Positions 1,601 to 62,354 of a DNA stretch of 64,000 nt are shown piece after piece. Below the pieces are notes generated by a model. That model was not told the origin of the DNA. It was given only the letters and a program-made list of their open reading frames with translations, and did no database searches. Numbering within the stretch: position 1 is the first letter of the stretch; the number at the start of each line of letters is the position of its first letter. Made by a program: the position numbers and the translations under genes. The stretch lies in contig CM126206.1 of assembly GCA_052327205.1 (NCBI GenBank), positions 315,518,001 to 315,582,000 on the forward strand. The letters run 5' to 3'. Origin of the DNA: Somniosus microcephalus (Eukaryota).

Positions 1601-1835
1601 GATAGGGTGGGATATGTGTTGGTGTAGGGGTTGCGGGGATCGGGTGGGATATGTGTCAGTGCAGGCTCGATGGGCCGAAATGGCCTCTATCTGCACTGTG
1701 GGGTTTCTGTGATTTCTGTGAGCTCAAATTGTAAGGTTTATTCCCCATCGCCGCCACCCCCCCATCCCCACTGTATTGAATTTTAACGGCAGGTACCCTT
1801 CCCGTTGTATTAACGGTAGACACCAATGTGACTTC

Positions 1836-2105
1836 TTTGGCAGCATCTCCCAAACCCGCGACCTCTGCCACTAGAAGGACAAGGGCAGCAGGCGCATGGG
1901 AACACCACCACCTCCAAGTTCCCCTCCAAGTCACACACCATCCTGACTTGGAAATATATTGGGCCATTCCTTCATCGTCGCCTGGGTCAAAATCCTGGAA
2001 CTCCCTCCCTAACAGCGCTGTGGGAGCGCCTTCACCACACGGACTGCAGCGGTTCAAAAAGGCGGCTCATCACCACCTTCTCAAGGGCAATAAATGCTGG
2101 CCTTG
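1836..2105 (+). mobile_element. 3' fragment of the LINE family seen at 47378-50580
   Basis: Closely matches 50283-50557 (cccaaacccgcgacctct...ggcaataaatgctggcctt). Confidence 0.85.
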
Positions 2106-4025: not shown

Positions 4026-4610
4026 GAGAGCGGAGGTGGGATGAGGTGGGTGGGGGTAGAGCGGGGTGGGATGAGGTGGGTGGGGGTAGAGCGGGGTGGG
4101 ATGAGGTGGGTGGGGGTAGAGCGGGGTGGGATGAGGGGGGTGGGGGTAGAGCGGGGTGGGATGAGGGGGGTGGGGGTAGAGCGGGGTGGATGAGGGGGTG
4201 GGGGTAGAGCGGGGTGGGGGTAGAGCGGGGTGGATGAGGTGGGTGGGGGTAGAGCGGGGTGGGATGAGGTGGGTGGGGGTAGAGCGGGGTGGGATGAGGT
4301 GGGTGGGGGTAGAGCGGGGTGGGATGAGGTGGGTGGGGGTAGAGCGGGGTGGGATGAGGTGGGTGGGGGTAGAGCGGGGTGGGATGAGGTGGGTGGGGGT
4401 AGAGCGGGGTGGGATGAGGTGGGTGGGGGTAGAGCGGGGTGGGATGAGGTGGGTGGGGGTAGAGCGGGGTGGGATGAGGTGGGTGGGGGGGTTAGAGCGG
4501 GGTGGATGAGGGGGGGGTAGAGCGGGGTGGGATGAGGGGGGGGGGGTAGAGCGGGGTGGGATGAGGGGGGGGTAGAGCGGGGTGGGATGAGGGGGGTAGA
4601 GCGGGGGGGT
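4026..4610 (+). repeat. G-rich minisatellite, 30-bp unit GGGATGAGGTGGGTGGGGGTAGAGCGGGGT, about 19 copies
   Basis: Exact 30-nt periodicity is directly visible at 4261-4480. Confidence 0.95.
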
Positions 4611-4769
4611 AGAGGGAAGAGAAGGGGGTAGAGGGGTAGGGCATTGAGAGGGGGTAGGGTAGAGGGGTGAGGGTGGTTCGAGCGGGGTTTGGGGCTAGAG
4701 GGGTGTGGTGAAGTGACGTTGAGGAGAGGGGCGTTGTGACGGGGAGCATGGAGAGGGAGGCGTTGTTGG

Positions 4770-6040
4770 GGGGGGGGGCTTGTGACCGGTAAGTGGGGTG
4801 CGAGAGAGAGAGAGGTGGGGGGTGGGGGGTTGTGACCGGCAAGTGGCGTGTGCGCGAGAGAGGTGGGTGGGGGGGGGTTTGTGACCGGTAAGTGGGGTGC
4901 GAGAGGGAGGTGGGGGGGGGGCGGGGGGTTGTGACCGGTAAGTGGGGTGTGAGAGAGGTAGGTGGGGGGGGGGGGGTTGTGACCGGTAAGTGGGGTGTGA
5001 GAGAGGTGGGGGGGGGGGGGTTTGTGACCGGTAAGTGGGGTGCGAGAGGGAGGTGGGGGGGGGGGGTTTGTGACCGGTAAGTGGGGTGCGAGAGAGAGAG
5101 AGGTGGGGGGTGGGGGGTTGTGACCGGCAAGTGGGTGTGCGCGAGAGAGGTGGGTGGGGGGGGGTTTGTGACCGGTAAGTGGGGTGCGAGAGGGAGGTGG
5201 GGGGGGGGCGGGGGGTTGTGACCGGTAAGTGGGGTGTGAGAGAGGTAGGTGGGGGGGGGGGGGTTGTGACCGGTAAGTGGGGTGTGAGAGAGGTGGGGGG
5301 GGGGGGGGTTTGTGACCGGTAAGTGGGGTGCGAGAGGGAGGTGGGGGGGGGGGGTTTGTGACCGGTAAGTGGGGTGCGAGAGAGAGAGAGGTGGGGGGGG
5401 TTTGTGACCGGTAAGTGGGGTGCGAGAGGGAGGTGGGGGGGGGGGCGGGGGGTTGTGACCGGTAAGTGGGGTGTGAGAGAGGTGGGGGGGGGGGGGGTTT
5501 GTGACCGGTAAGTGGGGTGCGAGAGAGAGAGAGGTGGGGGGGGGTTTGTGACCGGTAAGTGGGGTGCGAGAGGGAGGTGGGGGGGGGCGGGGGGTTGTGA
5601 CCGGTAAGTGGGGTGTGAGAGAGGTAGGTGGGGGGGGGGGGGTTGTGACCGGTAAGTGGGGTGTGAGAGAGGTGGGGGGGGGGGGGTTTGTGACCAGTAA
5701 GTGGGGTGCGAGAGGGAGGTGGGGGGGGGGGTGAGAGAGGTGTGGGGGGGGGTTGTGACCGGTAAGTGGGGTGGGGGGGGGGGGTTGTGACCGGTAAGTG
5801 GGGTGTGAGAGAGGTGGGGGGGGGGGGTTGTGACCGGTAAGTGGGGTGTGAGAGAGGTGGGGGGGGGGGGGGGTTGTGCCCGGTAAGTGGGGTGTAAGAG
5901 AGGTGGTCTGGGGGGGGGGGTTGTGACCGGTAAGTGGGGTGTGAGAGAGGTGGGGGGGGGGTTGTGCCCGGTAAGTGGGGTGAGAGAGAGGGAGGTGGGG
6001 GGGTGGGTGCGGTTTGTGACCGGTAAGTGGGGTGCGAGAG
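4770..6040 (+). repeat. G-rich minisatellite, about 45-50-bp unit with core TTGTGACCGGTAAGTGGGGTG, about 27 copies
   Basis: The core recurs between variable (GA)n and poly-G runs; 4781-5067 resembles 5068-5355, suggesting a higher-order repeat. Confidence 0.95.
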
Positions 6041-6532
6041 GCGCTGTGATGGAGGAACCGTCGGCTGCCGCTGCTAGTCCTATTCCGCTCGTGCACACAC
6101 TCGTGTATAGTTTTTAAAAATTACTTTTAAAAACTGTTCAAAATAATTACTTAAGTACCTAATCGATCTATTGAAATAAAACACCTCGGGTGACATTTAA
6201 ATTTTGAAGCGAATTTACTATTTTTAATAAATATATACACATACATACTCGTCATTCGGTCCGCCTGCCTTCAGTAGGCGGGCGCGACTTGGCTATGACT
6301 CTCCCAATGGGGCTGGATGGACTGGGTGGATGTGCAGGATTGGCAGTTGCCCAGGCCGCTGCGTGGTTGGTCGGGCTAGGGGGAGGAGCTCCTTGTTTTT
6401 GAATGGGTCGTTGGCGCTTGAATGCGGCCAATGGGGCGGTGTGCTCGGCCTCAGTTGGTGGAGGAGGAGTTGAGGATTGAGGGGTCAGTGTTGCATCCAG
6501 AATCTGAATCAACAAGCTGATGGAGGATGGGT

Positions 6533-9395: not shown

Positions 9396-9734
9396 TCATA
9401 AAATTGAACTTGATTCTTGCAGTAGCTGGTTTATAACTTTTTTTAAGTGCTAGTATTCTTTAATACATAGTCAAATCTGGTCATTTAAACTAATATTTTC
9501 AGATGTAACTGCATTCGAATGAAGACCGGATACTGTAAGGTATTAAAAAAAAAGTATCTGACCTTTAAATGAAGGCTATTACAGGTGTATGTTACAAGAG
9601 GAATTGAAGCATGGTGGATAGAAAGTTGGCTGACAGGCAGGAGAGTGAGTTAGGGGGAAAGGGTATTGGCTGTGTTGAAAATGGTTTGCCATAGGGGTTA
9701 GTGGTGGGTATTGTTCTTGGTGGTTACATAGAAA

Positions 9735-10183
9735 GTAAAGAAAGAAAGACTTGCATTTACATAGCGCCTTTCACGACCACTGGACGTCCCAAAGTGCTTT
9801 TTGAAGTGTAGTCACTGTTGTAATGTAAAAAATGTGGCAGCCAATTTATGCACCGCAAGCTCCCACAAACAGCAATGTGATACTGACCAGATAATCTGTT
9901 TGTGATGTTGAATGAGGGATAAATATTGGCCAGGCCACCGGAGGTAACTCCCCTGCTCTTCAAAATAGTTCCATGGGATCTTTCACATCCACCTGAGGGG
10001 GCAGAAGGGGCCTCGGTTTAACGTCTCATCTGAAAGACGGCACCTCTGACAGTGCGGCACTCCCTCAGTACTGCACTGGAGTGTCGGCCTAGATTTTTGT
10101 GCTCAAGTCTCTGGAGTGGGACTTGGAACCCACAACCCTCTGACCCAGAGGCGAGGATGGTACCCACTGAGCCACGCCTGACA
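9735..10183 (-). mobile_element. Deu-domain tRNA-SINE, full length
   Basis: tRNA-like head (reverse of gtggctcagtgggtacc...gggttccaagtcccac), Deu core and ggcgctatgtaaatgcaagtctttc tail. Confidence 0.9.
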
Positions 10184-10189
10184 CTAGAT

Positions 10190-10887: not shown

Positions 10888-12958
10888 AGAGTCATAGAGT
10901 TTTACAGCACAGAAAGAGGCCCTTCGGCCCATCGTGTCTGCGCCGCCCATCCATCCCTGTCCAGTCTAATCCCATTTTCCAGCATTTGGTCCATAGCCTT
11001 GTATGCAATGGCATTTCAAGTGCTCATCCAAATGCTTCTTGAATGTTGTGAGGGTTCCTGCCTCCACCACCCTTTCAGGCATTGAGTTCCACATTCCAAC
11101 CACCCTCTGGGTGAAAAAGTTCCTCCTCAAATCCCCTCTAAATCTCCTGCCCCTTACCCTGAATCTATGCCCCCTTGTTATTGACCCCCCCACTAAGGGG
11201 AAAAGTTCCTCTTTATCTACCCTATCTATGCCCCTCATTATTTTGTACACCTCAATCAGGTCCCCCCTCAGCCTTCTCTGCTCCAAGGAAAACAACTCCA
11301 GCCTGTCCAGCCTCTCTTCATAGCTGAGGCGCTCCATCCCAGGTAACATCCTGGTGAATCTTCTCTGCACCCTCTCCAAAGCAATCACATCCTTCCTATA
11401 GTGAGGCGACCAGAACTGCACACAGTACTCCAGCTGTGGCCTCACCAGCGTTTTGTACAGCTCCATCATAACCTCCCTGCTCTTATATTCTATGCCTCGG
11501 CTAATGAAGGCAAGTATCCCATATGCCTTTTTAACCACCTTATCTACCTGCTCCGCTGCCTTCAGGGATCTATGTACATGTACACCAAGGTCCCTCTGAC
11601 CCTCTGTACTTCCTAGGGTCCTACCACTCATTGTGTATTCCCTTGCCTTATTTGTCCGTCCAAAATGCATCACCTCGCACTTTTCAGGGTTAAATTCCAT
11701 TTGCCACTTTTCCGCCCATCTGACCAACCCGTTTATATCGTCCTGTAGCCGGAGGCTTTCCTCCTCGCAATTTACCACCCCACCAATTTTCGTGTCATCT
11801 GCGAACTTACTGATCATACCTTTTACATTTTCATCCAAATCATTTATGTAGATCACAAACAATAAGGGACCCAGCACCGATCCCTGAGGTACCCCACTGG
11901 ACACAGGCTTCCAGTCACAAAAGCAACCTTCGACCATCACCCTCTGCCTCCTGCCACTCAGCCAGTTTAGGATCCAACGCGCCAAGGCACCCTGGATCCC
12001 ATGGGCTCTTACCTTCTTGACCAGTCTCCTATGCGGGACTTTGTCAAAAGCTTTACTGAAGTCCATGTACACCACATCCACAGCATTTCCCTCATCCACC
12101 CCACTAGTCACCCCCTCGAAAAATTCGATCAGATTTGTTAGGCATGATTTACCCTTGACAAAGCCATGCTGACTATCCCCGATTAATCCTTGCCTCTCCA
12201 AGTGGAGATTAATTTTGTCCCTCAGAATTTTTTCCAATAATTTCCCCACCACAGATGTTAGACTCACTGGCCTGTAATTCCCTGGTTTATCCCTGCTACC
12301 CTTCTTGAATAATGGTACTATGTTAGCTGTTCTCCAGTCCTCTGGTACATCCCCTGTGGCCAGAGAGGTTCTGAAAATTAGTGTCAGAGCCCCTGCAATC
12401 TCCTCCCTTGCCTCCCACAGCAGCCTGGGATACATCTCGTCCGGGCCTGGGGATTTATCCACTTTTTGGCCCGCTAAAACCGCTAGCACCTCCTCCCTCT
12501 CGATGCTAATATGTTCAAGTATGTCACAGTCCCCTTGCCCGATTTCTATGTCTGCATCGTCTTTCTCCATAGTGAACACAGATGCAAAAAATTCATTTAA
12601 AACCCCGCCTACATCCTCTGGCTCTACACACAGATTGCCACTTTGGTCCCTAATGGGCCCTACCCTTTCCCTGGTTATCCTCTTGCCCTTAATATACTTA
12701 TAAAACATCTTAGGATTTTCCTTTATTTTGCTCGCCAGTGTTATTTCATGGCCCCTCCTCGCCCTCCTAATTTCTTTTTTAAGTATGCCCCTGCACTTTT
12801 TATACTCCTCTAGGGCTTCTTCTGTCTTTAGTCTTTTGTAACTGCCAAAAGCCCCCCTCTTATTTCTAATGCATTTCTGTATATCCCTTGTCATCCAAGG
12901 TTCCCTTTGCTTGTTGGTCCCACCCTTGACCTTTACAGGAACATGTTGGCGTTGTACT
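10888..12958 (-). mobile_element. 5'-truncated young CR1-like LINE
   Basis: Uninterrupted 642-aa ORF with RT motifs and an intact 3' UTR with (ctctatga)n tail. Confidence 0.95.
10966..12894 (-). CDS. CR1 ORF2 reverse transcriptase (partial, no endonuclease)
   Basis: KSPGPD, NYRPVSLTS, QHGF, DFSKAFD, GVPQGSVLGP and KFADD motifs. Confidence 0.9.
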   Translation of the reverse strand: MTRDIQKCIRNKRGAFGSYKRLKTEEALEEYKKCRGILKKEIRRARRGHEITLASKIKENPKMFYKYIKGKRITRERVGPIRDQSGNLCVEPEDVGGVLNEFFASVFTMEKDDADIEIGQGDCDILEHISIEREEVLAVLAGQKVDKSPGPDEMYPRLLWEAREEIAGALTLIFRTSLATGDVPEDWRTANIVPLFKKGSRDKPGNYRPVSLTSVVGKLLEKILRDKINLHLERQGLIGDSQHGFVKGKSCLTNLIEFFEGVTSGVDEGNAVDVVYMDFSKAFDKVPHRRLVKKVRAHGIQGALARWILNWLSGRRQRVMVEGCFCDWKPVSSGVPQGSVLGPLLFVIYINDLDENVKGMISKFADDTKIGGVVNCEEESLRLQDDINGLVRWAEKWQMEFNPEKCEVMHFGRTNKAREYTMSGRTLGSTEGQRDLGVHVHRSLKAAEQVDKVVKKAYGILAFISRGIEYKSREVMMELYKTLVRPQLEYCVQFWSPHYRKDVIALERVQRRFTRMLPGMERLSYEERLDRLELFSLEQRRLRGDLIEVYKIMRGIDRVDKEELFPLVGGSITRGHRFRVRGRRFRGDLRRNFFTQRVVGMWNSMPERVVEAGTLTTFKKHLDEHLKCHCIQGYGPNAGKWD

Positions 12959-22003: not shown

Positions 22004-22040
22004 CCCTCCAAAGGATACTTGTTTTGTTTCAACCAGTCAG

Positions 22041-22505
22041 TATCAGCCGTGGCTCAGTGGGTAGCACCCTTGCATCTGAGTCAGAAGGTCGTGGGTTCAA
22101 GTCCCACTCCAGACTTGAACACAAAAATCTAGGCTGACACTCCAGTGCAGTACTGAGGTAGTGCTGCACTGTCTGAGGTGCCGTCTTTCGGATGAGACGT
22201 TAAACCGAAGCCCCATCTGCGCTCTCAGGTGGGTGTAAAAGAACCCACGGCACTATTTCTAAGAAGAGCAGGGGGAGTTCTCCCAGGTGTCCTGGGGCCA
22301 ATATTTATCCCTCAATCAAAGTCACTATAAAACAGATTATTTGGTCATTATCACATTGCTGTCTGTGGGAGCTTGCTGTGCGCAAATTGGCTGCTGTGTT
22401 TCCTACATTACAACAGTGACTACACTTCAAAAAGTACTTCATTGGCTGTACAGTGCTTTGGGACATCCAGTGGTTGTGATGGGCGCTATATAATTGCAAG
22501 TCTTC
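22041..22505 (+). mobile_element. Deu-domain tRNA-SINE, full length
   Basis: A box tggctcagtgggt, B box ggttcaagtcc, Deu core and L2-like tail. Confidence 0.9.
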
Positions 22506-25152: not shown

Positions 25153-25597
25153 TAAAGAAAGATTTGCATTTACATAGTGCCTTTCACGACCACCAGACAC
25201 CCCAAAGTGCTTCACAGCAAATGAAGTACTTTTTGAAGTGTAGACACTGTTGTAATATAGGAAACACAGCAGCCAATTTGCACACAGTAAGCTTCCACAA
25301 ACAGCAATGTGATAATGACCTGATGATCTGTTTTAGTGATGTTGGTTGAGGGATAAATATGGGCCCCAGGAGAACTCCCCTGCTCTTCTTCGAAATGGGA
25401 TCTTTTACGTCCACCTTATCGAGCAGACGGGCCTTGGTTTAACATCTCATCTGAAAGACGGCACCTCCTACAGTGCAGCAGTACCGCACTGGGAGTGTCA
25501 GCCTAGATTTTTGTGCTCAAGTTTCTGGAGTGGGACTTGAGTCCACAACCTTCTGACTCTGAGGTGAGGGTGCTACCAACTGAGCCACAGCTGACAC
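25153..25597 (-). mobile_element. Deu-domain tRNA-SINE, full length
   Basis: Head, core and tail all present in reverse orientation. Confidence 0.9.
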
Positions 25598-26459
25598 TTG
25601 GACAAGATGCTGCAAAGTGACCTAGGGAGGGGTGGGAAAGAAAGTTAGTGGGGTGTGAGAGGAGGAGCATAAAAAATATAAAACCATGTTTTATTAACAC
25701 AGTGGCTCAGGCCAGGGCTTGTAGAGTAGAGAGACTGCAACCATATATCTTGAGCTACTGCCTTCACTGCAGTGCTAACATCTGAGTGGGAAGGTATTTA
25801 ATATGCTTGGAAAAATTTGAATCACCAGTGTTTAACAATGTGATGAATCCATGCTGCTGCTTGCTTCTGTATAACCGACAGTGGAAATGATGTGTGCGTG
25901 CACCAGCAATTCCCAATAATACAGTTCTTCCGTTCCCAGCGGCGCTGAACTTTAGGTGTGGTTCATTGCCTCTTGTGCTCAAATGTACTCACAAAGCAGA
26001 TCATTTGCATTTAGCAATTGCTGAGCTATGCTACCAGTGTTGGAATAAATTGGAGAGACTACAATTATCGAGGACATCCTAGTGAAGGCTGGGACTAGGA
26101 TCCAAAAGTCCAGATTAAAATCATTGATTTACAACAACTATACCTTGCTGCTTAGTAAGCCTCCTATTCTGATAACGTCTCTAACGTGTGTTGTCTTGTA
26201 GTTTACTGCAATGCTGGTGTTCCTTCCACCAAACCTGGAATGCTCGTTTACTGTTGTATCTCCTTTCCCCTGTCTCTTCCTCATACCCCACCAAAAAACC
26301 TCTTATCTGCACCCTTCCTAAAAATTGCTCATGCTTGGGGTATAGTTGAACAGCTGTCAGCAGCTTTCTGATATCTCATCCAGGTGATCACTGTCCAGGC
26401 ACAGACCAGAATGAACACCAGGCTCTCTGACCATCATGAGCATCACTGCTCAGCTGGTC

Positions 26460-28989: not shown

Positions 28990-30330
28990 CTCAATGAGCT
29001 AACCGCTTAGCCCCCATTATGTGGGCTAGGATGTAGGCAGCAAAGTTTGGGTGAGTCGGACTTTGTGCAATGTAGAGTTCGGGAGGCTCACAGAGAGACC
29101 CTGCAAGTGACAAAGGCATGGCTGAAAATTTTGGAGGTGGTGGAATTGATACTGAGGTCGGACACCATTGGATTTACTCTGGATAAGTAGTTGAGAAGGG
29201 ACCAGGGATTGAGGATTATGATGCAGAATTTTTTGGCAAGAGCTTTAAAGGGTGGCTTTGGTCATGCCAGTATTGATTTGGAGAAAGCTCTGGCTTCTGT
29301 GGCATTGTAGTTGTCGCTTCGAGTGGTGGCGAGGTGGAGCTGGGTGTCATCAACGTGTGTATAGAAGAGGACCAGATGCCTATGGATAATGTTGCCATGG
29401 GGCAGCATACAGACAAATAAGAGGGGACCAACTAGGGAGCACTTCTGAGGGAACTTGTGGGGCTGTTCCCAGGAGACATGTTGGCTCTGATGAGAGTGCA
29501 ACCAAGCAAAGCCAGTACCGTGGAGGAGGATGGAGTGTTCAAAAGTATTGAATGACTCCGAGGTCAAGGAAAGAAAGAAAGAATTGCATTTATACAGTGC
29601 CTTTCACGACCACCGGACGTCCCAAAGCGCTTTATAGCCAAGGAGTACTTTTTTTTTTTGAAGTGTAGTCATTGTTGTAATGTCGGAGATGCAGCAGCTA
29701 ACTTGCACACAAGCTCCCACAAACAGCAATGTGATAATGACCAGATCATCTGTTTTAGTGATATTGATTGAGGGATAAATATTGGCCAGGAGATAACTCC
29801 CTTGCTGTTCTTCAAAATAGTGCCGTGGGATCTTTTATGTCCACCTGAGAGCAGACAGGACCTCAGTTTAATGTCTATCTGAAAGACGGCACCTCTGACA
29901 GTGCAGCCCTTCCTCAGTACTGCACTGGAGTGTCAGCCTAGATTTTTGTGCTCAAGTCTCTGAAGTGGGATTTGAACCCATAACCTTCTGATTCAGCGGC
30001 GAGGGTGCTACCCACTGAGGAGGGATAAAGCACCATAGTTGCAGTCAGAAAGACTGTTGGCTACTTTGATCAGGGCAGTCAGTGCAGCGGGCAGACGACA
30101 CCAAACAGAAGGGAATCATACAAACTGGTGGGAGAGGCAAATGTGAAACTCGGTAGTGATTTTATATTCCAAGATTTTCCAGAGAACAGAGAAGTAAGTA
30201 GGCAAGGTGGAGAGGTCACAGTGAGATTTTGAGGAGGCGGTGATGACAGCAGTTTTGAACTGTTCCCGAGGGAAGGGTGCCATTGACTATGTCAACAGCA
30301 GAAGATAGTTGCATGGTCAGAGGGGTTGGG
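28990..30330 (-). mobile_element. Old L2-like RT fragment interrupted by a DeuSINE
   Basis: Reverse frame GPLLF...VDDTQLHL; SINE inserted at 29568-30020. Confidence 0.5.
29568..30020 (-). mobile_element. Deu-domain tRNA-SINE
   Basis: Head, core and tail in reverse orientation. Confidence 0.9.
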
Positions 30331-33037: not shown

Positions 33038-33528
33038 GGGTATGGTAGCATAATGGTTCTGTTACTAGACTGGTAATCCCGAGGCCTGGAGTAATAATCT
33101 GGAGACATGAGTTCAAATCCCACCACGACAGCTGGGGAATTTAAATTTAATTAAATAAATCTGGATTTAAAAAGCTAGTATCAGTAATGGTGACCATGAA
33201 ACTATCGGATTGTCGTAAAAACCCATCTGGTTCACTAATGTCCTTTAGGGAAGGAAATCTGCCGCCCTTACCCAGTCTGGCCTATATGTGACTCCAGACC
33301 CACAGCAATGTGGTTGACTCTTAACTGCCCTCTGAAGTGGCCCAGCAAGACACTCAGTTGTACCAAACCGCTATGATAAACAATAACTGTGGGTGCATCT
33401 TCACCACATGGGCTGCAGTGGTTTAAGAAGGTGGTTCACCACCACCTTCTAGAGGAAAATTAGGGATGGGCAGTAAATGCTGGCCTTGCCAGCAACGTCC
33501 ACATCCCTTGAACAAATAAAATAAAAAA
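33038..33528 (+). mobile_element. Second tRNA-derived SINE family (head, body, LINE tail)
   Basis: A-box-like tagcataatggt, B box gagttcaaatccc, tail gggcagtaaatgctggccttgccagc matching the end of 47378-50580. Confidence 0.85.
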
Positions 33529-40199: not shown

Positions 40200-40538
40200 T
40201 TTTTTTTATTCATTCACGGGATGTGGACAAGGCCAGCATTTATTGCCCTTGAGGTGGTGATGAGCCGCCTTATACAACTGAGTGGCTTGCTAGGCAATTT
40301 CAGAGGGCAGTTAAGAGTCAACCACTTTGTTGTGGGTCTGGTGTCACATAGGGTAAAGACAGCAGATTTCCTTCCCTAAAGGGCCAGATGGGTTTTTACG
40401 ACAATCCGGTAGTTACTGATAGCTTTTTATTCCAGATTTATTTAATTAATTTACATTTAAATTCCCTGTGGTGGGATTTGAACTCATGCCTCCGGATCAT
40501 TAATCTAGGCCAATAACAATCACCATGCTACCGTACCC
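40200..40538 (-). mobile_element. tRNA-derived SINE, same family as 33038-33528
   Basis: Reverse reads gggtacggtagcatgg...gagttcaaatcccaccac...gggcaataaatgctggcctt. Confidence 0.8.
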
Positions 40539-42222
40539 TTATGCCATTTGGCTGTTTGCCATGTTTCAGAGTATGGGGTCCTTTTTTGGGGGTGGAAGAA
40601 ACTGGACCTTGGCCAGATCCTAACTCTGTTCATTCTAATGGTGGCAGGTGTCTTTGAGATTGAACAGCTCGGTGAATTGCAGGCATTGGCTCACTGAACA
40701 ACCTAGCTTAATTGATGGTCCTTGCGTGCCATCCTGAATTCCTAGTTAGTGGTTTTATACCAGTAGAAGACTTGCTTTCTATCCTCCCCATAACTGGTCA
40801 GGTTTCACACCCATTTGATGCTTGTAGTGCAATTTAAAAAAAATTGCAAGTACCATCAGCTGCTGCCTGCGGTCCACTTTTTATTAAATTCTAATTAAAA
40901 ATGAATGAAATCGATTTTAGAGTGGAGTCCTCGCTGTTTATCACAGGAGTTAGGGAAACACCATAACTATTCAAAGGACACTGCTGCTTATCTTTGTCTT
41001 GAGCAAGGTTCAGAAAAGGATTGATTACATAATATCTGACTTAGCTTGGTACAGCAACCTTACTTGATCAAGTGGGCCTGGGTTGCTCTCGCTATTGCAG
41101 TTGCACTCTCTCGTATCACCAGTGGAGAATGTACAGGAGAGATCATTCACCCTGGTGGGTAATTTTGTTTCCTGTCTGTCTCCACATGGCAAACAGCATG
41201 TCCCACCAAACTGTCTAGTCAGTCGCACTTGGAGTTGTCTTTCTGTTCTTATTTTTGTCTGTCTCTTTCTTTCTCCCACTTTGTCTGTCTGTGTGTCTCT
41301 CTCTCTCTCAATAGAGAAAACTAGCCAGAGAATCCTGTTTCTGTTTTTTTAATGATGCAAATGAGGCCCTGTTTGTTAACCAAAATGCTCCGGATAAAGT
41401 CTGAATGGATTCAAAATGTCCTGCAGTTGCAAATTTTTTGAAAGTACTAACTGTATTGTACATGTGAGGATCATGGTGCCATGAAGATCTACACGTTAAC
41501 ATAACTTCCTGTAGCCACCAGTTTATAGCAGAAATTGACAGGTTGCTACAAGGATGACTAATATGGAAAGTACAAGTATTACGCTGGCATTGTAGGAAGG
41601 AGTGCTTTTTCCTAAATTGGCATATTGCTATAAAGAGGATGAGAGGGATTTTTTGTGGCTCAATTTGAATTCTGTTAAACTGGGTGGCTGTTTCTTGCAG
41701 GAGTCTGTTTTCCAAAATGACTCTTGCTTACCGCTGTTTATTCTTTCGAGAAGCATTTTTCTCTGCAATGTGAAAAAAGCAGCATGTCCACACAGACATG
41801 ACCTTCAGAATCAGGCCGTAAAAGGCTTTCTTTGGCCTCAACACTCTTGCCAAGAAGAAACTGTATTAAGTGTTTGAGTCTGATGCAGTTTCCTTTTGAG
41901 CTGGTCTGATTCTTTCTGGACTTGGTCCCTGAAGGATTGTGTGCAATTATATTGCTGCTCGTGAAGTGGGGAATAAAAATGGGTACTGAATAAAGCTACA
42001 AGCAGTCCTTAACTGGAAAATCTGGTTGTGCATATTAGCAACCAAGCAGACTTTGGGCTTGTAATGGAAACTACCAGTTAACATAAACGTCACCATTCCC
42101 TAGTTAGGATGTTTTTGAGCTTGGTTGTGATTCCAGTGATGGGTTGAATTAATTGTGCATGACCAAGTCCCCAACCTTGGTATTGAGATTTTAAAACACT
42201 ATTCTGCTGTTTCCTTGTACAG

Positions 42223-46810: not shown

Positions 46811-47377
46811 TACCTCATTTCTTTTTGGAATTCTATTTCTGTGTTCTCTTTCCCTGCCCCCCCCCCCCCCTTCCTTTATCTAGATTTTGCATTGCTTTCT
46901 TGCCCTTGTTCATCTGCCATTTCTCTTCTATCTTGAGCCTTACCTTTCTGCTCTTGCATACTGATTAAGCCTGTCTAGATTTTTTCTGTTTGGTTTTCCT
47001 TGTACTTCATTCTGATGATTGGCATCAACCTTTCCAGCACTTCAATTTCAGCAGCGGCCCTTCACGTGACTTTAGAATTTTACTTGTTGCTACTTTTCAG
47101 TGGCATGTGTTAAAATTAATGATGGCCATTTTGCAGCCCCCCGCTTTCTGTTTGCCTCTCATCGGCTGCCCCTTATTCCATATTTGGCCCGAAACTCTTC
47201 CCAAGGTGACTTGGCTTCCTTTCTGGGCTGGTTGACATGCAGGGTTCTTTGCCCAAGAGACGAGTCTCTTGCTATAGGTCTACTTTCTTGGATACTAGGA
47301 GCATCCCAGCCTCCAGAATATCGATCTATCATGTCGCCCCAAAGGAGAATAAATAAATATTTCAGTTAACGGAAGCA

Positions 47378-50300
47378 ATAGCATAGTAGTTATATTACTG
47401 GACTCGTAATCCAGAGGACTGGACTAATGATCCACGGCATTTAAATTCAGTTAATTAAATAAATCTGGAATAAAAAGCTAATCAGTAACGGTGACCATGA
47501 AATTATCGGATTGTCGTAAAAATCCACCTGGTTCACTAATATCCTTTAGGGAAGGAAATCTACTGTCCTTACCCGGTCTGGCTTATGTGACTCCAGACTC
47601 TCAGCAATGTGGTTGACTCGTAACTGCCCTCTGAAATGGCCTAGCAAGCCACTCAGTTGTAACAAACTGCTGCGAGAAACAATAATAATAAAACCGGACG
47701 GACTACCCGGCATTAACCTCGGTACCGGCTTCAGACACAATGGCACACCCGGCCCAGTCGACCCTGCAAAGTCCTCCTCACTAACATCTGGGGACTTGTG
47801 CCAAAATTGGGAGAGCTGTCCCACAGACTAGTCAAACAACAGCCTGACATAATCATGCCCACTGAATCATACCTTTCAGCCAATTTCCCAGACTCCTCCA
47901 TCACCATTCCTCTGTATGTCATGTCCCACTGGCAGGACAGACCCACCAGATGTGGCAGAACAGTGATATACAGTCGGGAGGGAGCGGCCCTGGGAGTCCT
48001 CAACGTTGACTCCGGACTCCATGAAGTCTCATCGCTTCAGGTCAAGCATGGGCAAGGAAACCTCCTGCTGATTGCCACCTACAGCCCTCCCTCGGCTGAT
48101 GAATCAGTACTCCTCCATGTTGAACACCACTTTGAAGAAGCATGGGCACAGAAGGTACTCTGGGTGGGTGACTTCAATGTCCATCACCAAGAGTGGCTTT
48201 GTAGCACCACAGCTGGCTGAGTCCTGAAGAAAAATAACTGCCAGTCTGGGCCTGCGACAGGTGGTGAGTGAACCAACACGAGGGAAAAACCTACTTGACC
48301 TCGTACTCGCCAATCTACCTGTCGCAGATGCATCTGCCCATGACGGGGTTGGTGACCACTGCACAGTCCTTGTGGAGACGAAGTCCTGTCTTCACACTGA
48401 GGACACCCTCCATCGTGTTGTGTGGCACTACCACCGTGCTAAATGGGATAGATTCAAAACCGATCTAGCCGCTCAAAACTGGGCATCCATGAGTCGCTGT
48501 GGGCCATCAATAGCAGCAGAATTGTATTCCACCACAATCTGTAGCCTCATGGCCTGGCATATCTCTCACTCTGCCATTACAATCAAGCCAGAGGACCAAC
48601 CCTGGTTCAATAAGGAGTGTAAAAGAGCATGCCAGGAGCAGCAGCACCAGGCGTACCTAAAAATGAGGTGCCAACCTGGGAAAGCTGCAACACAGGACTA
48701 CATACATGCGAAACAGTGGAAGCAGCATGCTATAGGGGCTAAGTGATCTTACAATCAACGGATCAGATCAAAGCTCTGCAGTCCTGCCACATCCAGTCAT
48801 GAATGGTGGTGGACAATTAAACAACTAACTTGGAAGAGGAGGCTCTATGAATATCCCCATCCTCAATGAGGGTGGAGCCCAGTACGCAGGTGCACAAGAC
48901 AAGGCTGAAGCGTTTGCAACCATCTTCAGCCAGAGGTGCTGAGTGGATGATCCATCTCTGCCAACTCCTTAGGTCCCCACCATCACAGAAGCCAATCTTC
49001 CGCTAATTCCATTCACTCCACGTGATATCAAGAAACGGCTGAGTGCACTGGCTACAGCAAAGGCTATGGGACCCGACAACATCCCGGCTGTTGTGCTGAA
49101 GACTTGTGCTCCAGAACTAGACGCGCCTCTAGCCAAGCTGTTCCAATACAGCTACAACACCGGCATTTACCTGACAATGTGGGAATTCGCCCAGGTATGT
49201 CATGTCCACAAAAAGCAGGACAAATCCAATCCAGCCAATTACCACCCCATCAGTCTACTCAATCATCAGCAAAGTGATGGAAGGTGTCGTCGACAGTGCT
49301 ATCAAGTGGCACTTATTCACCAATAACCTGCTCACCAATGATCAGTTTGGGTTCTGCCAGAACCACTCTGCTCCAGACTTCATTATAGCCTTGGTCCAAG
49401 CATGGACAGAATAGCTGGATTCCAGAGGTGAGGTGTGAGTGATTGCCCTTGACATCAAGGCAGCATTTGACTGAATGCGACATGAAGGAGCCCTAGTAGA
49501 ATTGAAGTCAATGGGAATCAAGGGGAAAACTCTCCACTGAATGGAGTCACACCGAGCACTATATGGTTGTGGTTGTTGGTCAATCATCTCGGCCCCAGGA
49601 CATCACTGCAGGAGTTCCTCAGGGCAGTGTCCTAGGCCAACCATCTTCAAGTGCTTCATCAATGACCTTCCCTCCATCATAAGGTCAAAAGTGGGGATGT
49701 TTGCTGATGATTGCAGAGTGTTCAGTTCCATTCGCAACTCCTCAGAAAATGAAACTGTCCATGCCCGCATGCAGCAAGACCTAGACGACATTCAGGCTTG
49801 GGCTGATAAGTGGCAGGTAACATTTGCGCCACACAAGTGCCAGGCAATGACTATCTCCAACAAGCGAGAGTCTAACCACCTCCCCATGACATTCAACGGC
49901 ATTACCATTGCCAATTATCCCACCATCATCATTCTGGAGGTCACATTGACCAGAAACTTAACTGGACCAGCCACACACATACTGCGGCAACAAGAGCAGG
50001 TCAGAGGCTGGGTATTCTGCGGCGAGTGTCTCACCTCCTGACTCCCCAAAGCCTTTCCACCATCAACTAGGCACAGGTCAGGTGTGTGATGGAATACTCT
50101 CCACTTGCCTGGATGAGTGCAGCTCCAACAACACTCAACAAGCTTAATACCATCCAGGACAACGCAGCCCGCTTGATTGGCACCCCATCCACCACCTTAA
50201 ACGTTCACTCCCTCCACCAGCGTACCGTGGCTGCAGTGTGTACCATCTACAAGATGCACTGCAGCAACTTGCCAAGACGACTTTGGCAGCACCTCCCAAA

Positions 50301-50580
50301 CCCGCGACCTCTACCACCTAGAAGGACGAGGGCAGTAGGCGCATGGGAACACCATCACCTGCAAGTTCTCCTCCAAGTCGCACACTATCCTGACTTGGAA
50401 GTATATCGGCCGTTCCTTCATCGTCGCTGGGTCAAAATCCTGGAACTCCCTCCCTAACAGCACTGTGGGAGCACCTTCACCACGACTGCGGCGGTTCAAG
50501 AAGGTGGCTCACCACCACCTTGAGGGCAATTAGGGATGGGCAATAAATGCTGGCCTTGCCAGCGACGCCCACACCCTGGA
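47378..50580 (+). mobile_element. CR1/L2-group LINE (APE plus RT, decayed) with tRNA-SINE-like 5' end
   Basis: APE motifs NIWGL...PDIIMPTESYL and WVGDFNVHH; RT motifs GPDNIP, NYHPISLL, QFGF, GVPQG, MFADD; stops and frameshifts present; first 300 bp match SINE 33038. Confidence 0.88.
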
Positions 50581-51130
50581 ACAATTTTTTAAATCCAGTT
50601 GAGGACTGTGCTTAAATTTCAGTCCAATAGGAACTATGACCAAATTGTACCATCCTTGCTGATCTCTACAGTTCCACGTAGAGCTATTGCCAGGATATTA
50701 GTAAGGAATCTCTCTGACGTCTAGCACACAGCCAAAATAATATTCAGCAAACCAATAAAAAGGCAACTACAAATAGATGGCTGTGCTTTCACAAGTGGAA
50801 AATGTGAGCTGTGCTCTGGTGTGCTTGCAAACTACTTCTTCATACTGAGCTGTGTGACAGCCTTCCCTAATTTAGCAAGAAATGGCAAGAACTGTAACCT
50901 CTGGAGAGAGAGAGAATATAAGCTCCTTTTTTTAGGAGGGAAAGGATTAAAGCTGTTTTCACGATTTACATTTCAGATGCAAATTTTATTAACTGTTGAC
51001 TGCCTGAAAGCATTTGAAGACACACGATGGAAAAACTGAGGGGGAAAAAGTTACACCTTTAGCTGTTTTGTTTTGGTTGTGTATAACAATGCATGTGTGG
51101 TAAGACGGGTTTTCTATAGAATGAGTTCGA

Positions 51131-51580
51131 CTGTCAGCCGTGACTCAGTGGGTAGCACCCTGGCCTCTGAGTCAGAAGGTTGAGAGTTCAAGTCCGACTC
51201 CAGAGACTTGAACACAAAAACCTAGGCTGACATTCCAGTGCTGCACCGACAGAGGTGCCGTCTTTCAGATGAGCCGTTAAACTGGGGCCCCGTCTGCGCG
51301 CTCAGGTGAGCGTAAAAGATCCTACGGCACTATTTTGAAAAGAAGCAGGGGAGTTATTCCCGGTGTCTTGGCCAATATTTATCCCTCAATCAACAGCACT
51401 AAAATAGATTATCTGGTCATTATCACATTGCTGTTTGTGGGAGCTTGCTGTGTGTAAATTGGCTGCCGCGTTTCCTGCATTACAACAGTGACTACACTTC
51501 AAAAGTACTTCATTGGCTGTAAAGCACTTTGGGACCTCCGGTGGTCGTTAAAGGCGCTATATAAATGCAAGTCTTTCTCT
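51131..51580 (+). mobile_element. Deu-domain tRNA-SINE, full length
   Basis: Head, core and tail present. Confidence 0.9.
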
Positions 51581-51764
51581 TCTCTACTTACTGGTTATCA
51601 CTAGTGTAACATTATAAACTAATGTTCTGGTGCTTGTTATGCTGTGCTGAAGGGCCCGAATCTTTAAATGCTACTTCATAAACCTGCTGGAAAAACGGTT
51701 GGCCAGAGCAAGATTCCTCCTAGTACATTGGACCAATTGAAAATGCAGCAAATGTAATAACATA

Positions 51765-53720: not shown

Positions 53721-54072
53721 ACATAAAGGCGTTTGTATCCTTCTCTCAATCTTGGGTACAACTCTTAATTCTAATCATTTCCTAACTATCCCAGCCAAAA
53801 ATTGACTGACTTGTCAGCCATTGGTTTTGACGGCCATTTCCTTTCGTGCCCTTGTGTGCAGGTCATTCAGCCTTGGGCCTTATTCTCCTTCATTGTCTTC
53901 AATGTTTCTGTCATTTCCTCAGTAATTACTGTTGTCCTTAATGTTTTCTCCCCATTTCTTGGAAAATCAACCCTCATTTCTGAGAGAGAATCGTAGAGTT
54001 TTAAGACAGAGGTAGATGAAGTATCTGGAAAAAGCATCTATCCTGAAGTCTTTTTAATTGCTAATTGTGGAA

Positions 54073-56050
54073 GAAACATAGAAGATAGGAGCAGGAGTAG
54101 GCCATTCGGCCCTTCGAGCCTGTTCCGCCATTCAATGAGATCATGGCTGATCATCCAATTTCAGTACCCTGTCCCTGCCTTCTCCCCATATCCCTTGATC
54201 CCTTTAGCCTCAAGAAATATATCCAACTCTTTCTTGAATATATTTAATGAACTGGCCTGCACCGCCCTCTGTGGCAGAGAATTCCACAGGTTCACCACAC
54301 TCTGGGTGAAGAAATTCCTCCTCATTTCAGTCCTAAATGGCTTACCCCTTATCCTTAGACTATGACCCCTGGTTCTGGACTCCCCAGCCATCAGAAACAT
54401 TGTTCCTGCATCTAGTCTGTCCAGACCTGACAGAATTTTATAGGTTTCGATGAGATCCCCCCTCAATCTTCTAAACTCCAGTGAGTATAAGCCCAATCGA
54501 CACAATCTCTCCTTATACGTCATTCCTGCCATCCCAGGTATCAGCCTGGTGAATCTTCGCTGCACTCCCTCCATGGCAAGAACGTCCTTCCTCAGGTAAG
54601 GTGACCAAAACTGCACACAATACTCGAGGTGCGGTCTCACCAAGGCCCTGTACAACTGTAGCAAGACATCCTTGTTCCTGTACTCGAACCCTCTTGCGAC
54701 GAAGGCCAACATACCATTTGCCTTCTTAACCGCCTGCTGCACCTGCATGCTTACCTTCAGCGACTGGTGCACAATAACACCCAGGTTTCTTTGCACTTCC
54801 CCTTCTCTCAATCTATTGCCATTCAAATAATAATCTGCCTTCCTGTTTTTGCCACCAAAGTGGATAACCTCACATTTATCCACATTATAGTGCATTTGCC
54901 ATGTTTCTGCCCAATCACCCAACCTGTCCAAATCGTACTTGCGTTTCACGACATCCTCCTCACAGCTTACCCTCCCACCCAGCTTTGTATCGTCTGCAAA
55001 TTTGGAGATATTACATCCAATTCCCTCGTCCAGATCATTAATATATATTGTGAACAGCTGGGGTCCTCGGACCGATCCTTGCGGTACCCCACTCGTCACT
55101 GCCTGCCACTCGGAGAACGACTCGTTTATTCCAACTCTTGGCTTTCTGTCCGCCAACCAGTTCTCTATCCAAGTCAATACCTTGCCCCCAATCCCATGTG
55201 CCTTAATTTTGCACGCTAATCTCTTATGTGGGACCTTATCGAAAGCCTTCTGAAAGTCCAAATACACCACATCCACTAGTTCTCCCTTATCTATTTTACC
55301 AGTTACATCCTCAAAAAATTCCAGTAGTTTAGTCCAGCATGATTTACCGTTTGTAAATCCATGTTGACTTTGTCCGATCCTGTCACTGCTTTCCAAGTGC
55401 TCTGCTATTACATCTTTTATAATAGACTCTAGCATTTTCCCCACTACCGATGTCAGGCTTACCGGTCTATAATTCCCCGCTTTTTCTCTACCGCCTTTTT
55501 TGAATAGTGGGGTAACATTAGCTACCCTCCAATCCATGGGTACTGTTCCAGAGTCTATCGAGTTCTGGAAGATGACCAGCAATGCATCTACTATCTCTAG
55601 GGCCACTTCCTTAAGTACCCTGGGATGTAGACCTTCAGGCCCTGGGGATTTATCGGCCTTCAGTCCCATCAATTTTCCTAACACCATTTCCCTACAAATA
55701 CTGATTTCTTTCAGTTCCTCCCTTTCATCAAACCCTATGTTCCCCGACATCTCTGGGAGGTTATTTGTGTCCTCCTTTGTGAAGACAGAACCAAAATATG
55801 TATTTAGTTGGTCTGCCATTTCCTTGTTTCCCATTATAAATTCCCCTGATTCTGACTGCAAGGGACCTACGCTTGACTTCACCAATCTTTTTCTCTTCAC
55901 ATATCTATAAAAGCTTTGAGTCAGTTTTTATGTTCCCTGTTAGCTTACTCTCATATTCTATTTTCCCTTTCTTAATTAATTAATCCCTTTGTCCTCCTTT
56001 GTTGACTCCTAAACTGCTCCCAATCCTCAGGAGTATTGCTTTTTCTAGCC
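54073..56050 (-). mobile_element. 5'-truncated CR1-like LINE
   Basis: 579-aa open RT ORF plus 3' UTR. Confidence 0.95.
54161..55900 (-). CDS. CR1 ORF2 reverse transcriptase (partial)
   Basis: KSPGP, NYRPVSLTS, QHGF, DFQKAFD, GVPQGS and KFADD motifs. Confidence 0.88.
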   Translation of the reverse strand: MKRKRLVKSSVGPLQSESGEFIMGNKEMADQLNTYFGSVFTKEDTNNLPEMSGNIGFDEREELKEISICREMVLGKLMGLKADKSPGPEGLHPRVLKEVALEIVDALLVIFQNSIDSGTVPMDWRVANVTPLFKKGGREKAGNYRPVSLTSVVGKMLESIIKDVIAEHLESSDRIGQSQHGFTNGKSCWTKLLEFFEDVTGKIDKGELVDVVYLDFQKAFDKVPHKRLACKIKAHGIGGKVLTWIENWLADRKPRVGINESFSEWQAVTSGVPQGSVRGPQLFTIYINDLDEGIGCNISKFADDTKLGGRVSCEEDVVKRKYDLDRLGDWAETWQMHYNVDKCEVIHFGGKNRKADYYLNGNRLREGEVQRNLGVIVHQSLKVSMQVQQAVKKANGMLAFVARGFEYRNKDVLLQLYRALVRPHLEYCVQFWSPYLRKDVLAMEGVQRRFTRLIPGMAGMTYKERLCRLGLYSLEFRRLRGDLIETYKILSGLDRLDAGTMFLMAGESRTRGHSLRIRGKPFRTEMRRNFFTQSVVNLWNSLPQRAVQASSLNIFKKELDIFLEAKGIKGYGEKAGTGY

Positions 56051-56489: not shown

Positions 56490-59090
56490 AAGGAAAAGCA
56501 GGTGTGGTAGCTCTGTTAATAAAGGATGAGATCAGTGCAGTAGTGAGAAATTTATATTGGCTCAAGATCAAGATGTAGAATCAGTTTGGGTGGCGATAAG
56601 AAATAATAAGGGAAAGAAGTCAGTGGTGGGAGTAGTCGAAAGTGGCTACACTGTAGGACAGAGCATAAAGCAAGAAATAATGGAGGCTTGTAAGAAAAGT
56701 ACTGCAATAATCATGGGCGATTTTAATCTTCGTATTGATTGGACAAATCAAATTAGCCAAGATAGCCTTGAAGAGTTCATAGTGTATTTGGGATGGTTTC
56801 TTAGAACAATATGTTGTGGAACCAACCAGGGAGCAGGCTACCTTAGATCTGGCACTGTGTAATGAGACAGGATTAATTAATCTCATAGAAAGGATCCTCT
56901 AGGAAAAAGTGATCATAGCATGATAGAATTTCAAATTCAGTTTGAGGGTGAGAAAGTTGGGTCTCAAACCAGTGTCCTGAACTTAAATAAAGGCAATTAC
57001 AAAGGTATGAAGGCATAGTTGGCTAAAGTTGACTAGAAAAATAGATTAAAGGGTAAGACGGTAGATAAGCATTTAAGGAGATATTCATAACTCTCAGCAA
57101 AGATATATTCTAGTGAGAAGGAAGGACTTTGAGAAGGATGAACCATCTGTGGCTAACTAAGGAAGTAAAGGATGGTATCAAATTGAAAGCCAAAACATGC
57201 AATGTTGCAAAGTTTAGTGGTAGGCAATTTTTAGAAACCAGCAAAGGATGAGTTTAAAAAAAAAAAAAAAAAATAGATTGAGAGTAAACTAGCAAATATA
57301 AAAACAGACAGTAAGAGCTTCTACAGGTATATAAAAAGGAAGAGAGTAACTAAAGTAAACGTTGGTCCCCAAGAGGATGAGACTGGGGAATTAATAATGG
57401 GAAACAGAAATGGCACAGACTTTGAACAAATATTTTGTATCAGTCTTCACGGTAGAAGATACTAAAAGCATCCCAATAGTAGATAATCAAGGGGCTATAG
57501 GGAGGGAGGAACTTAAAACAATCACTATCACTAGAGAAAAAGCACTCAGTAAAATAATGGGACTAAAGGTGGACAAGTCCACTGGACCTGATGACCTGCA
57601 TCCTAGGGTCTTAAAAGAAGTGGATGCATTGGTTGCAATCTACCAAAATTCCCTGGATTCTGAAGAGGTCCCAGCAGATTGGAAAACCGCAAATGTAACA
57701 CCCCTATTTCAGAAAGGAGGGAGACACAAAGCAGGAAACTATAGACCAGTTAGCCTAACATCTGTCATTGGGAAAATGCTGGAGTCCTTCATTAAGGAGG
57801 TAGTAGCAGGACATTTAGAAAATCATAATACAATCAAGCAGAGTCCACATGGTTTTATGAAAGGGAAATCGTGTTTGACAAATTTATTAGAGTTCTTTTG
57901 AGGATGTAATGATCAGGATGAATCAAGGGGAACCAGTAGATGTAGTGTATTTAGATTTCCAAAAGGCATTCGATAAGGTGCCACATAAAAGGTTACTGCA
58001 CAAGATAAGAGCTCACTGTGTTGGGGGTAATATATTAGCATGGATAGAGGATTGGCTAAGTTTAAAGAAAACAGTCGGGATAAATGGGTCATTTTCCGGT
58101 TGGCAAACTAACTAGTGGGGTGCCACGGGGATCAGTGCCAAGGCCTTAACTATTTACAATCTATATTAATGACTTGGATGAAGTGGACTGAGTGTAATGT
58201 AGCCAAACTTGCTGCTGATACAAAGATAGGTGGGAAAGCAAGTTGTGAGGAGGACACATAATCTGCAAAGGGTTAAGTAAGTGGGCAAAAATTTGGCAGA
58301 TGGGGTATAATGTTGGAAAATGTGAGGTTATCCACTTTGGTTGGAAAAATAAAAAAGCAAATTGAGAGAGATTACAAAATGCTGCAGTACAAAGGGATCT
58401 GGGGGTCCTCGTACATGAAACATAAAGTTAGCATGCAGGTACAGCAAGTAATTAGGAAGGCAAATGGAATGCTGGCCTTTATTGCAAGGGAGTTGGAGTA
58501 TAAAAGCAGGGAAGTCCTGCTACAACTGTACAGGGTATTGGTGAGACCACACCTGGAGTACTGCGTACAGATTTGGTCTCCTTATTTAAGGAAGGATATA
58601 CTTGCATTGGAGGCAGTTCAGAGAAGGTTCACGAGGTTGATTCCTGGGATGAAGGGGTTGTCTTATGAGGAAAGGTTGAGCAGGTTGGGCCTATACTCAT
58701 TGGAGTTTAGAAGAATGAGAGGTGATCTTATTGAAACATAAGATGCTGAGGGGACTTGACAAGGTGGATGCAGAGAGGATGTTTCCCCTCGTGGGGGAAT
58801 CCAGAATTAGGGGACATAGTTTCAGAATAAGGGGTCAACCATTTAAGACCGAGATGAGGAGGAATTTCTTCTGAGGGTGGTGAATCTGTGGAATTCTCTA
58901 CCCCAGAGAGCTGTGGAGGCTGGGTCATTGAATATATTTAGAGTGGAGATACAGATTTTTGAACGTTAAGGGAGTCCAGGGTTATGGGGAACGGGCAGGG
59001 AAGTGGAGTTGAGGCCAAGATCAGACCAGCCATGATCTTGTTGAATGGCGGAGCAGGCTCGAGGGGCCGAATGGCCTACTTATGCATGTT
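56490..59090 (+). mobile_element. Decayed CR1-like LINE (part of APE, RT and 3' UTR)
   Basis: ESVWV, IMGDFN, KSTGPD, NYRPVSLTS and DFQKAFD in broken frames. Confidence 0.92.
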
Positions 59091-60529: not shown

Positions 60530-60972
60530 TGTGGCTCAGTGGGCAGTACTGTCACCCCTGAGTCAGGTGGGTTCAAGTCTCACTCCAGAGATTTGAGCAC
60601 AAAAATCTAGGCTGACACTCCAGTGCAGTACTGAGGGAGTGCTGCACTGTTGGAGGTGCTGTTTTTCAGATGAGACGTTAAACTGAGGCCCTGTCTGCCC
60701 TCGCATTGATGTAAAAGATCCCGTGGCACTATTTCGAAGAAGAGCAGGGGTGTTACCTCCGGTGTCCTGGCCAATATTTATCCCTCAATCAACATAACAA
60801 AAAACATTATCTGGTCATTATCACTTTGCTGTTTGTGGGAGCTTGCTGTGTGCAAATTGGGTGCTGCGTTTCCCACATTACGACAATGACTCCACTTCAA
60901 AAGTACTTCTTTCGTTGTAAAGCACTTTGTGACATCCTGAGGTCGTGAAAAGTGCTATAGAAATGCCAGTCT
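60530..60972 (+). mobile_element. Deu-domain tRNA-SINE
   Basis: Head, core and tail present; ends about 33 nt before exon 6. Confidence 0.9.
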
Positions 60973-61611: not shown

Positions 61612-62080
61612 GTGTCAGCTATGGCTCCGTAGGTAGCGCACTCGCCTCTGAGTCAGAAGGTTGTGAGTTCCAAGTCCCCACTCCAGCGACTCGAGCACAA
61701 AAATCTAGGCTGACACTCTCAGTGCAGTACTGAGGGAGTGTTGCACTGTTGGAGATGCCGTCTTTCGGATGAGACATTAAACTGAGGCCCCGTCTGCTCT
61801 CTCAGGTAGACGTAAAAGATCCCATGGTACTATATCGAAGAAGAGCAGGGAGTTATCCCTGGATCCTGGGGCCAATGTTTATCCCTCAATAGACATCACT
61901 AAAACAGATGATCTGGTCATTATCACATTGCTGTTTGTGGGAGCTTGCTGTGCGCAAATTGGCTGCTGCGTTTCCTACATTACAACAGCGACCACACTTC
62001 AAAGTGCTTCATTGGCTGTAAAACGCTTTGGGGCTCCCTGTGGTCGTGAAAGGTGCTATATAAATGCAAGTTTTTTTCTT
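61612..62080 (+). mobile_element. Deu-domain tRNA-SINE, full length
   Basis: Head, core and tail present. Confidence 0.9.
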
Positions 62081-62354
62081 CTCCCGAGCACTCTTTTTAT
62101 TGATCATGAGTAGCTGAGCCATTCAAACGAGAAAGATCTTGTGGTCTGATCTCGAAACTCTCTGGAGTTAGCTGCTCTAGGGTGGGGAGTTGGTGTTAAA
62201 ATTGGCCTTGATGTGTCTGGGTTAAGGGGGGCTTGGGGGCAGGAATTGACCAGGTATCTGACCTGAATTGCAGTTCCAGTACTCGTACTGGGACTGTGTG
62301 GATGTCCTATGAAGATGGCGTCAGGGTTGGCTGTGATGCCTCGGCATCAGAATA

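Follow-up and report, generated by a model that had tools for sequence, protein, structure and literature searches.

The 64,000-nucleotide stretch of the Somniosus microcephalus genome analyzed here (the window) contains a decayed copy of a LINE whose 5′ end, throughout its family, is a tRNA-like head of the kind found on SINEs. On balance, we consider it probable that this family represents an autonomous, single-ORF Zenon element with a fixed tRNA-derived head, a 3.3-kb RNA made by RNA polymerase III (Pol III), non-AUG internal initiation of translation, and a tendency to shed SINEs. We propose that the head, which carries A and B boxes and is the constant 5′ terminus of the shark and ray elements, likely drives Pol III transcription of the whole 3.3-kb RNA. 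The AUG-less ORF would then likely be translated by non-AUG internal initiation, and this might, more speculatively, be set by a predicted anticodon-like hairpin that pairs with the first Ala codon. Since promoter and RT-recognized tail sit at opposite ends, an internal deletion, probably arising by a template jump in reverse transcription, would yield a ready-made SINE, and some of these products were then amplified as SINE lineages.

LINEs are usually viewed as Pol II transcripts (or Pol I co-transcripts), and tRNA heads are thought to belong to non-coding SINEs. If the proposal is true, a protein-coding LINE under a permanent tRNA promoter would serve as a natural Pol III messenger. A more far-reaching version, in which one element, both SINE and LINE, has been maintained throughout shark and ray history as a Pol III mRNA with a tRNA-Ser-derived promoter, an uncapped and terminator-purged transcript, an IGR-like IRES on an AUG-less ORF and continuous SINE production, seems to us rather unlikely.

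Results

The window copy (47371-50590, plus strand) is a decayed, near-full-length elasmobranch Zenon LINE of the older of two subfamilies, 90% identical to the majority of old copies and 85% to the young copy L277. All of its parts lie on the plus strand. The tRNA-derived head (47371-47440) retains an A-box remnant at 47379, and deletions of 24 and 9 nt across the B-box region account for the B-box loss that had been claimed for this copy. Downstream lie a highly conserved non-coding core (47520-47672) and, at its end, a predicted hairpin (47631-47656; pair probabilities 0.89-0.97) whose 7-nt anticodon-like loop (47641-47647) has AGC as its central triplet. The single APE-RT ORF spans 47669-50533 when counted from the GCT (Ala) codon that lies in frame and is complementary to this triplet; it comprises a basic leader, the APE domain from about 47768 and the RT domain, with no Met before codon ~286. 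It is broken in the window copy by seven frameshifting indels relative to the family majority, in line with the decay originally noted. The 3′ tail (50462-50590) consists of the ORF end, a ~60-nt UTR with a predicted stem-loop and an A-rich end. The original prediction placed ~100 nt between the SINE-shared part and APE, with no ORF1; that layout is confirmed, but the segment is probably coding rather than a spacer, since it is open in the APE frame.

Two SINE-like internal deletions and a 5′-truncated 3′ fragment of the same Zenon LINE (1832-2105, plus strand) are also present in the window. The SINE predicted at 33038 is real, with its end moved to ~33522 (33038-33522, plus strand), and joins element positions 1-352 to 3171-end. 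The one predicted at 40200 is likewise real and sits on the minus strand (~40203-40545); it belongs to a multi-copy class and joins positions 1-328 to 3213-end. The claimed match of the element's 5′ ~300 bp to the first SINE was recovered at 81-87% in two blocks (33038-33386); the minus-strand SINE also aligns with this part, at 77% over 40273-40468. The element's 3′ tail forms the end of both SINEs, and their body/tail joins differ, as the prediction had it.

A genome-wide search with a 341-nt query spanning the head/ORF junction returned 4814 candidates in the 6.4-Gb genome of the shark itself. All 40 candidates that were scored match nearly the whole query, at 88-91% identity (self 100%). 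The junction is therefore family-wide rather than unique to this locus; it is also present in 20 of the 24 sequencing runs listed, which carry several organism labels. Among the 40 copies, 18 begin within 12 nt of one GGG, six begin at 13-60 nt and 16 are more truncated; the flanks of the 18 that share the 5′ end are unrelated to one another. Full-length copies carry no longer 5′ UTR and no ORF1, and a conventional LINE 5′ organization was not found. We saw no convincing target-site duplications around the junction copies.

Long flanks were retrieved for 39 of the 40 scored loci, and a majority sequence of the old subfamily was built from the window copy together with 26 loci (27 sequences). 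It is 3.3 kb long and contains a single frame of 972 codons that opens directly after the TAA closing the SINE-shared part and has its first Met at codon 286. A protein search uncovered a younger subfamily, from which 20 loci were selected for long frames. They agree with their own majority at 98-99%, and identity between the two majorities is 92.4%. Whole frames, 966-972 codons long and with the first Met at 281-286, occur in three of the 20 young loci and encode both APE and RT domains. When the subfamilies are compared, pN/pS is 0.15-0.27 from APE to the C-terminus and 0.57 in the 35-codon leader. Given the intact young frames, the two domains and purifying selection, the headed element is the autonomous form of the family. 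Copies of both subfamilies have A-rich 3′ ends, i.e. a tail of the poly(A) type. Large internal deletions with both ends kept were observed in many long copies (L306, L319, L321, L033, L052, L054 and others), which suggests frequent template jumps in the family. Inverted segments occur within or beside some copies (L323:3084-3193, L041, L051); the long perfect hairpin in L323 gave a miRNA-family match below threshold.

The two window SINEs retrieved 60 loci, of which 21 have one junction, 14 the 40200 junction, four a third and 12 other junctions; the remaining nine are LINEs. In every SINE class, head and body show few differences from the LINE, and the classes are of equal age, about 4-6% from their own majority. 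The young subfamily was sampled as 30 of 40 matches retrieved for its head: 24 of these copies are long and six are short deletions with six different junctions. Since the young LINE sheds SINEs by deletions that are each different, the direction from LINE to SINE is caught in progress. The 40200 junction is common to 14 of the 30 loci retrieved with that SINE, and some deletion products have thus later been amplified as SINE lineages. The prediction of a LINE whose fixed 5′ end derives from a tRNA, with SINEs as its internal deletions, is supported. The two window SINEs are not private deletions, given how widely the 40200 junction is shared. The 40200 class nests within the longer one; its origin could lie in a longer SINE rather than in the LINE. 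One deletion, with no acquisition of a head, would be a direct route to the birth of a SINE, and the young subfamily shows six such cases.

Intact heads match the genome's own tRNA-Ser(AGA) at 55 of 82 positions (z 5-7), and the element starts at about tRNA position 1; the comparison covered the tRNA types Ser, Lys and Cys, the latter two giving z 3-4. Both the A and the B box patterns were matched in 27 of 30 young heads at a fixed spacing of 53 nt. By eye, the extra-arm hairpin varies in sequence among old, young and white-shark heads while its complementarity is kept. Neither Rfam nor ARAGORN called the head a tRNA: the Rfam tRNA model gave 23.9-25.1 bits in two of five old copies, against a cut-off of 29, and no match in five young copies, and ARAGORN called no tRNA in ten loci. 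The same head opens all seven published elasmobranch Zenon consensuses in the part of the supplement of PMC13343379 considered (first 400 nt, by eye) and none of the three from hagfish and coelacanth, from which we infer that it was gained before the split of sharks and rays.

Pol III terminates at runs of at least four T. The old majority contains no TTTT in its 3.3 kb, compared with 16, 11 and 9 such runs of A, C and G, and the young majority also contains none. Over 99.5 kb of decayed copies, TTTT occurs at 0.19 per kb, and the intact copy L277 and L286 have one TTTT each. By comparison, the three nearest non-shark loci have 12 in 5,976 nt (~2 per kb), a same-genome CR1 control has four in 2.8 kb, and another same-genome LINE of similar T content has one to eight in each of 26 of 26 copies. 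From this LINE control, L241 was left out (its longest frame is not the RT frame), and L240, L244 and L245, which are Zenon-type and have no TTTT, were not counted. Metagenomic APE-RT frames carry at least two TTTT in 80 of 80 cases. Synonymous T use in the element drops with run length (0.30, 0.18, 0.09 and 0 of 6; P=0.0015 for runs of three or more), and Phe makes up 1.9% of residues, compared with 3.0-3.6% in the nearest homologs; G-run gradients of like shape are found in unrelated LINEs. The significance of the TTTT absence depends on the null (base shuffles give P=0.016, a dinucleotide model 0.20 and shuffling of synonymous codons 0.11), and only about one new TTTT is expected between the subfamilies, so that the absence by itself is weak evidence for Pol III. 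Nevertheless, the lack of TTTT in both majorities, unlike in the same-genome controls, suggests Pol III transcription with modest statistics. From the sequence features as a whole, we judge it quite likely that the element is transcribed by Pol III.

An uncapped RNA without an AUG at its ORF would require another mode of translational start. The 154 nt upstream of the ORF are 96% identical between subfamilies (148/154), above both the head (75/98) and the synonymous sites, which diverge by 14-25% in the ORF from APE to the C-terminus. This core ends in the well-predicted hairpin, whose 7-nt loop has anticodon-loop form with AGC, and an in-frame GCU follows downstream of the loop after a variable linker of 11-12 nt. 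In the published consensuses as far as compared by eye, loop and codon occur in six of seven; counted from the Ala codon, four of these six are in frame and the two dogfish ones are out. The whale-shark linker is 1 nt shorter, with the frame still kept from the Ala codon. The proposed pairing of loop and codon amounts to 3-4 bp, and the motif reached 0.3% under a null, with the motif defined post hoc after it had been seen. Family copies and published consensuses offer no covariation in the loop, and the predicted folding of the core does not exceed that of shuffled sequences (z 0.39). No equivalents of the ribosome-binding domain formed by PKII and PKIII were identified by folding, a method that cannot model pseudoknots, and there was no match to an Rfam IRES. 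N-termini of the homolog clusters P0065 and P0080 contain ‘GLA’ with an Ala 11 codons on, which by back-translation is compatible with loop and codon; the same-clade relatives P0101 and P0102 are called with a Met just before APE. A scan of viral contigs for the hairpin motif gave seven matches, none with RT or DNA similarity. An IGR-IRES-like start, with the anticodon-like loop pairing with the Ala codon, is put forward tentatively as a model that we rate somewhat less likely than not.

Discussion

One alternative to Pol III transcription is that the head is a fixed 5′ UTR and that the coding RNA is a Pol II product, from an internal promoter in the core or by host read-through; the boxes would then serve only the SINEs or RNA structure, and the scarcity of T runs would be compositional. 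LINEs are generally transcribed by Pol II (according to the part of PMC5786205 considered), the dinucleotide and codon-shuffle nulls were not rejected, and conservation is higher in the core than in the head. Against this, sharks and a ray alike retain the boxes and their spacing in the coding lineage, full-length copies begin at about tRNA position 1, and neither the same-genome controls nor the nearest non-shark relatives show the T-run scarcity, and we therefore regard the Pol II explanation as unlikely. That a SINE merely inserted by chance at the 5′ end of a LINE, or that the structure is a one-off chimera, was suggested only by its appearance at a single locus; a junction found family-wide in two subfamilies and in five other species refutes this, and its probability is negligible.

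It is also conceivable, though in our view doubtful, that Pol III transcription holds and translation starts by other means than a tRNA-mimicking pseudoknot, namely by leaky initiation at a near-cognate ACG, by re-initiation after an ATG-GCC-TAG uORF, or by a frameshift from an ATG in the +1 frame. Each finds some footing in the sequence. An ACG follows the Ala codon in both majorities, but it is ACA or AAA in other species, judging from the published portions compared. The ATG-GCC-TAG lies in frame just upstream, yet in this genome it is followed by a second in-frame TAA, which speaks against re-initiation. The +1-frame ATG occurs in six of the seven published consensuses as compared, whereas in most copies in this genome it is ATA, and the leader's shared variants are mostly silent when read in the APE frame (5/11 synonymous, versus 1/11 in the +1 frame). 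With its AUG-less frame, the element renders the translation of non-LTR ORFs experimentally accessible, including the idea of IGR IRESs in non-LTR elements, which is treated as hypothetical in the portion of PMC3894237 considered. With 3.3 kb, a single ORF and intact young copies, the element could also serve as a compact system for retrotransposition assays.

The dicistrovirus IGR IRES offers a structural parallel. Its pseudoknot I, as described in the part of PMC4132737 considered, combines an anticodon-like loop, a variable A-rich linker, a complementary in-frame codon and a non-AUG start, much as predicted for the element, and has five pairs where 3-4 are predicted here.

The family is already cataloged as Zenon, of the CR1 group, with consensuses in the supplement of PMC13343379. 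The elasmobranch entries (Zenon-1 of CarCar, HypSab, RhiTyp and ScyCan, and SquAca Zenon-1 to -3) have the same head, core and ORF start in their first 400 nt by eye, and share with the window family a length of ~3.3 kb, the lack of ORF1 and a poly(A) tail; they are the same family, and those of the spiny dogfish barely differ from the old subfamily. In the parts considered, that study describes Zenon elements with poly(A) tails and no ORF1 from elasmobranchs, coelacanth and hagfish; its main text contains no occurrence of tRNA, polymerase III, promoter or start codon, and the passages covered say nothing of SINE derivatives. In the openly accessible literature that we searched, neither this head nor an autonomous LINE driven by Pol III was described. 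The tRNA-head architecture of this cataloged family has apparently gone unremarked.

At the protein level, the nearest sequences are ~935-aa single-ORF APE-RTs on 3-4-kb contigs (42-46% identity). In a tree of unnamed homologs, the element joins these relatives, far from the genome's CR1. A metagenome scan for the 5′ ends of the nearest invertebrate-like relatives yielded only partial or decayed loci (L070, L072, L076), and scans of viruses and prokaryotes revealed nothing relevant. The NCBI shark gene models P0038 and P0098 (FERM-domain and aldo-keto reductase) include pieces of the ORF and are probably annotation artifacts.

Derivatives with a comparable layout are known from other lineages, again from sources considered in part. 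The 3.3-kb lepidopteran Zenon also repeatedly gives rise to derivatives, the SIDE Persaeus, that join 5′ and 3′ parts by internal deletion and keep the start and end of the ORF (PMC6740152). Persaeus has no tRNA, 5S or 7SL homology and no Pol III promoter, whereas in elasmobranchs the autonomous element itself carries the tRNA-type promoter. The bipartite SINEs derived from RTE and Vingi likewise consist of a tRNA head, a LINE 5′ part and a LINE 3′ part (Kojima 2018, PMC5786205). There, the head was added by a template switch to an already deleted LINE; in elasmobranch Zenon, head and coding LINE form one unit. SacSINE1, a Deu-SINE, is also a shark tRNA-SINE with a CR1-group tail (PMC5499810). 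An identity of the element with Deu/SacSINE1 was rejected: by eye, the published Deu domain matches the window repeat at 22040-22504 and not the element body. The Meta and UCON3 domains, as given in the portions of PMC7245038, PMC5499810 and PMC3747384 considered, were not seen in the element body either.

Other repeats populate the window. An abundant tRNA-SINE of ~460 bp, with a body matching the Deu domain (SacSINE1-like), is represented by the repeat at 22040-22504 and about ten related copies, including 9730-10185, 25154-25598, 29566-30019, 51132-51592, 60531-60972 and 61612-62083. CR1-type LINE fragments occur at 54072-55964 and 11026-12945 (both minus strand) and at 57270-59080; the first belongs to a young family with copies of 97-98% identity genome-wide, and served as a control. 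G-rich tandem arrays with units of 30 nt and ~46 nt lie at 4027-6041. Elsewhere, large tRNA gene arrays of ~1.6-kb tandem units were observed at G000:C24, ~42.9-43.1 Mb, and a dense cluster of tRNA-Ser motifs at C4, ~0.7-1.9 Mb, with 374 motif matches genome-wide.
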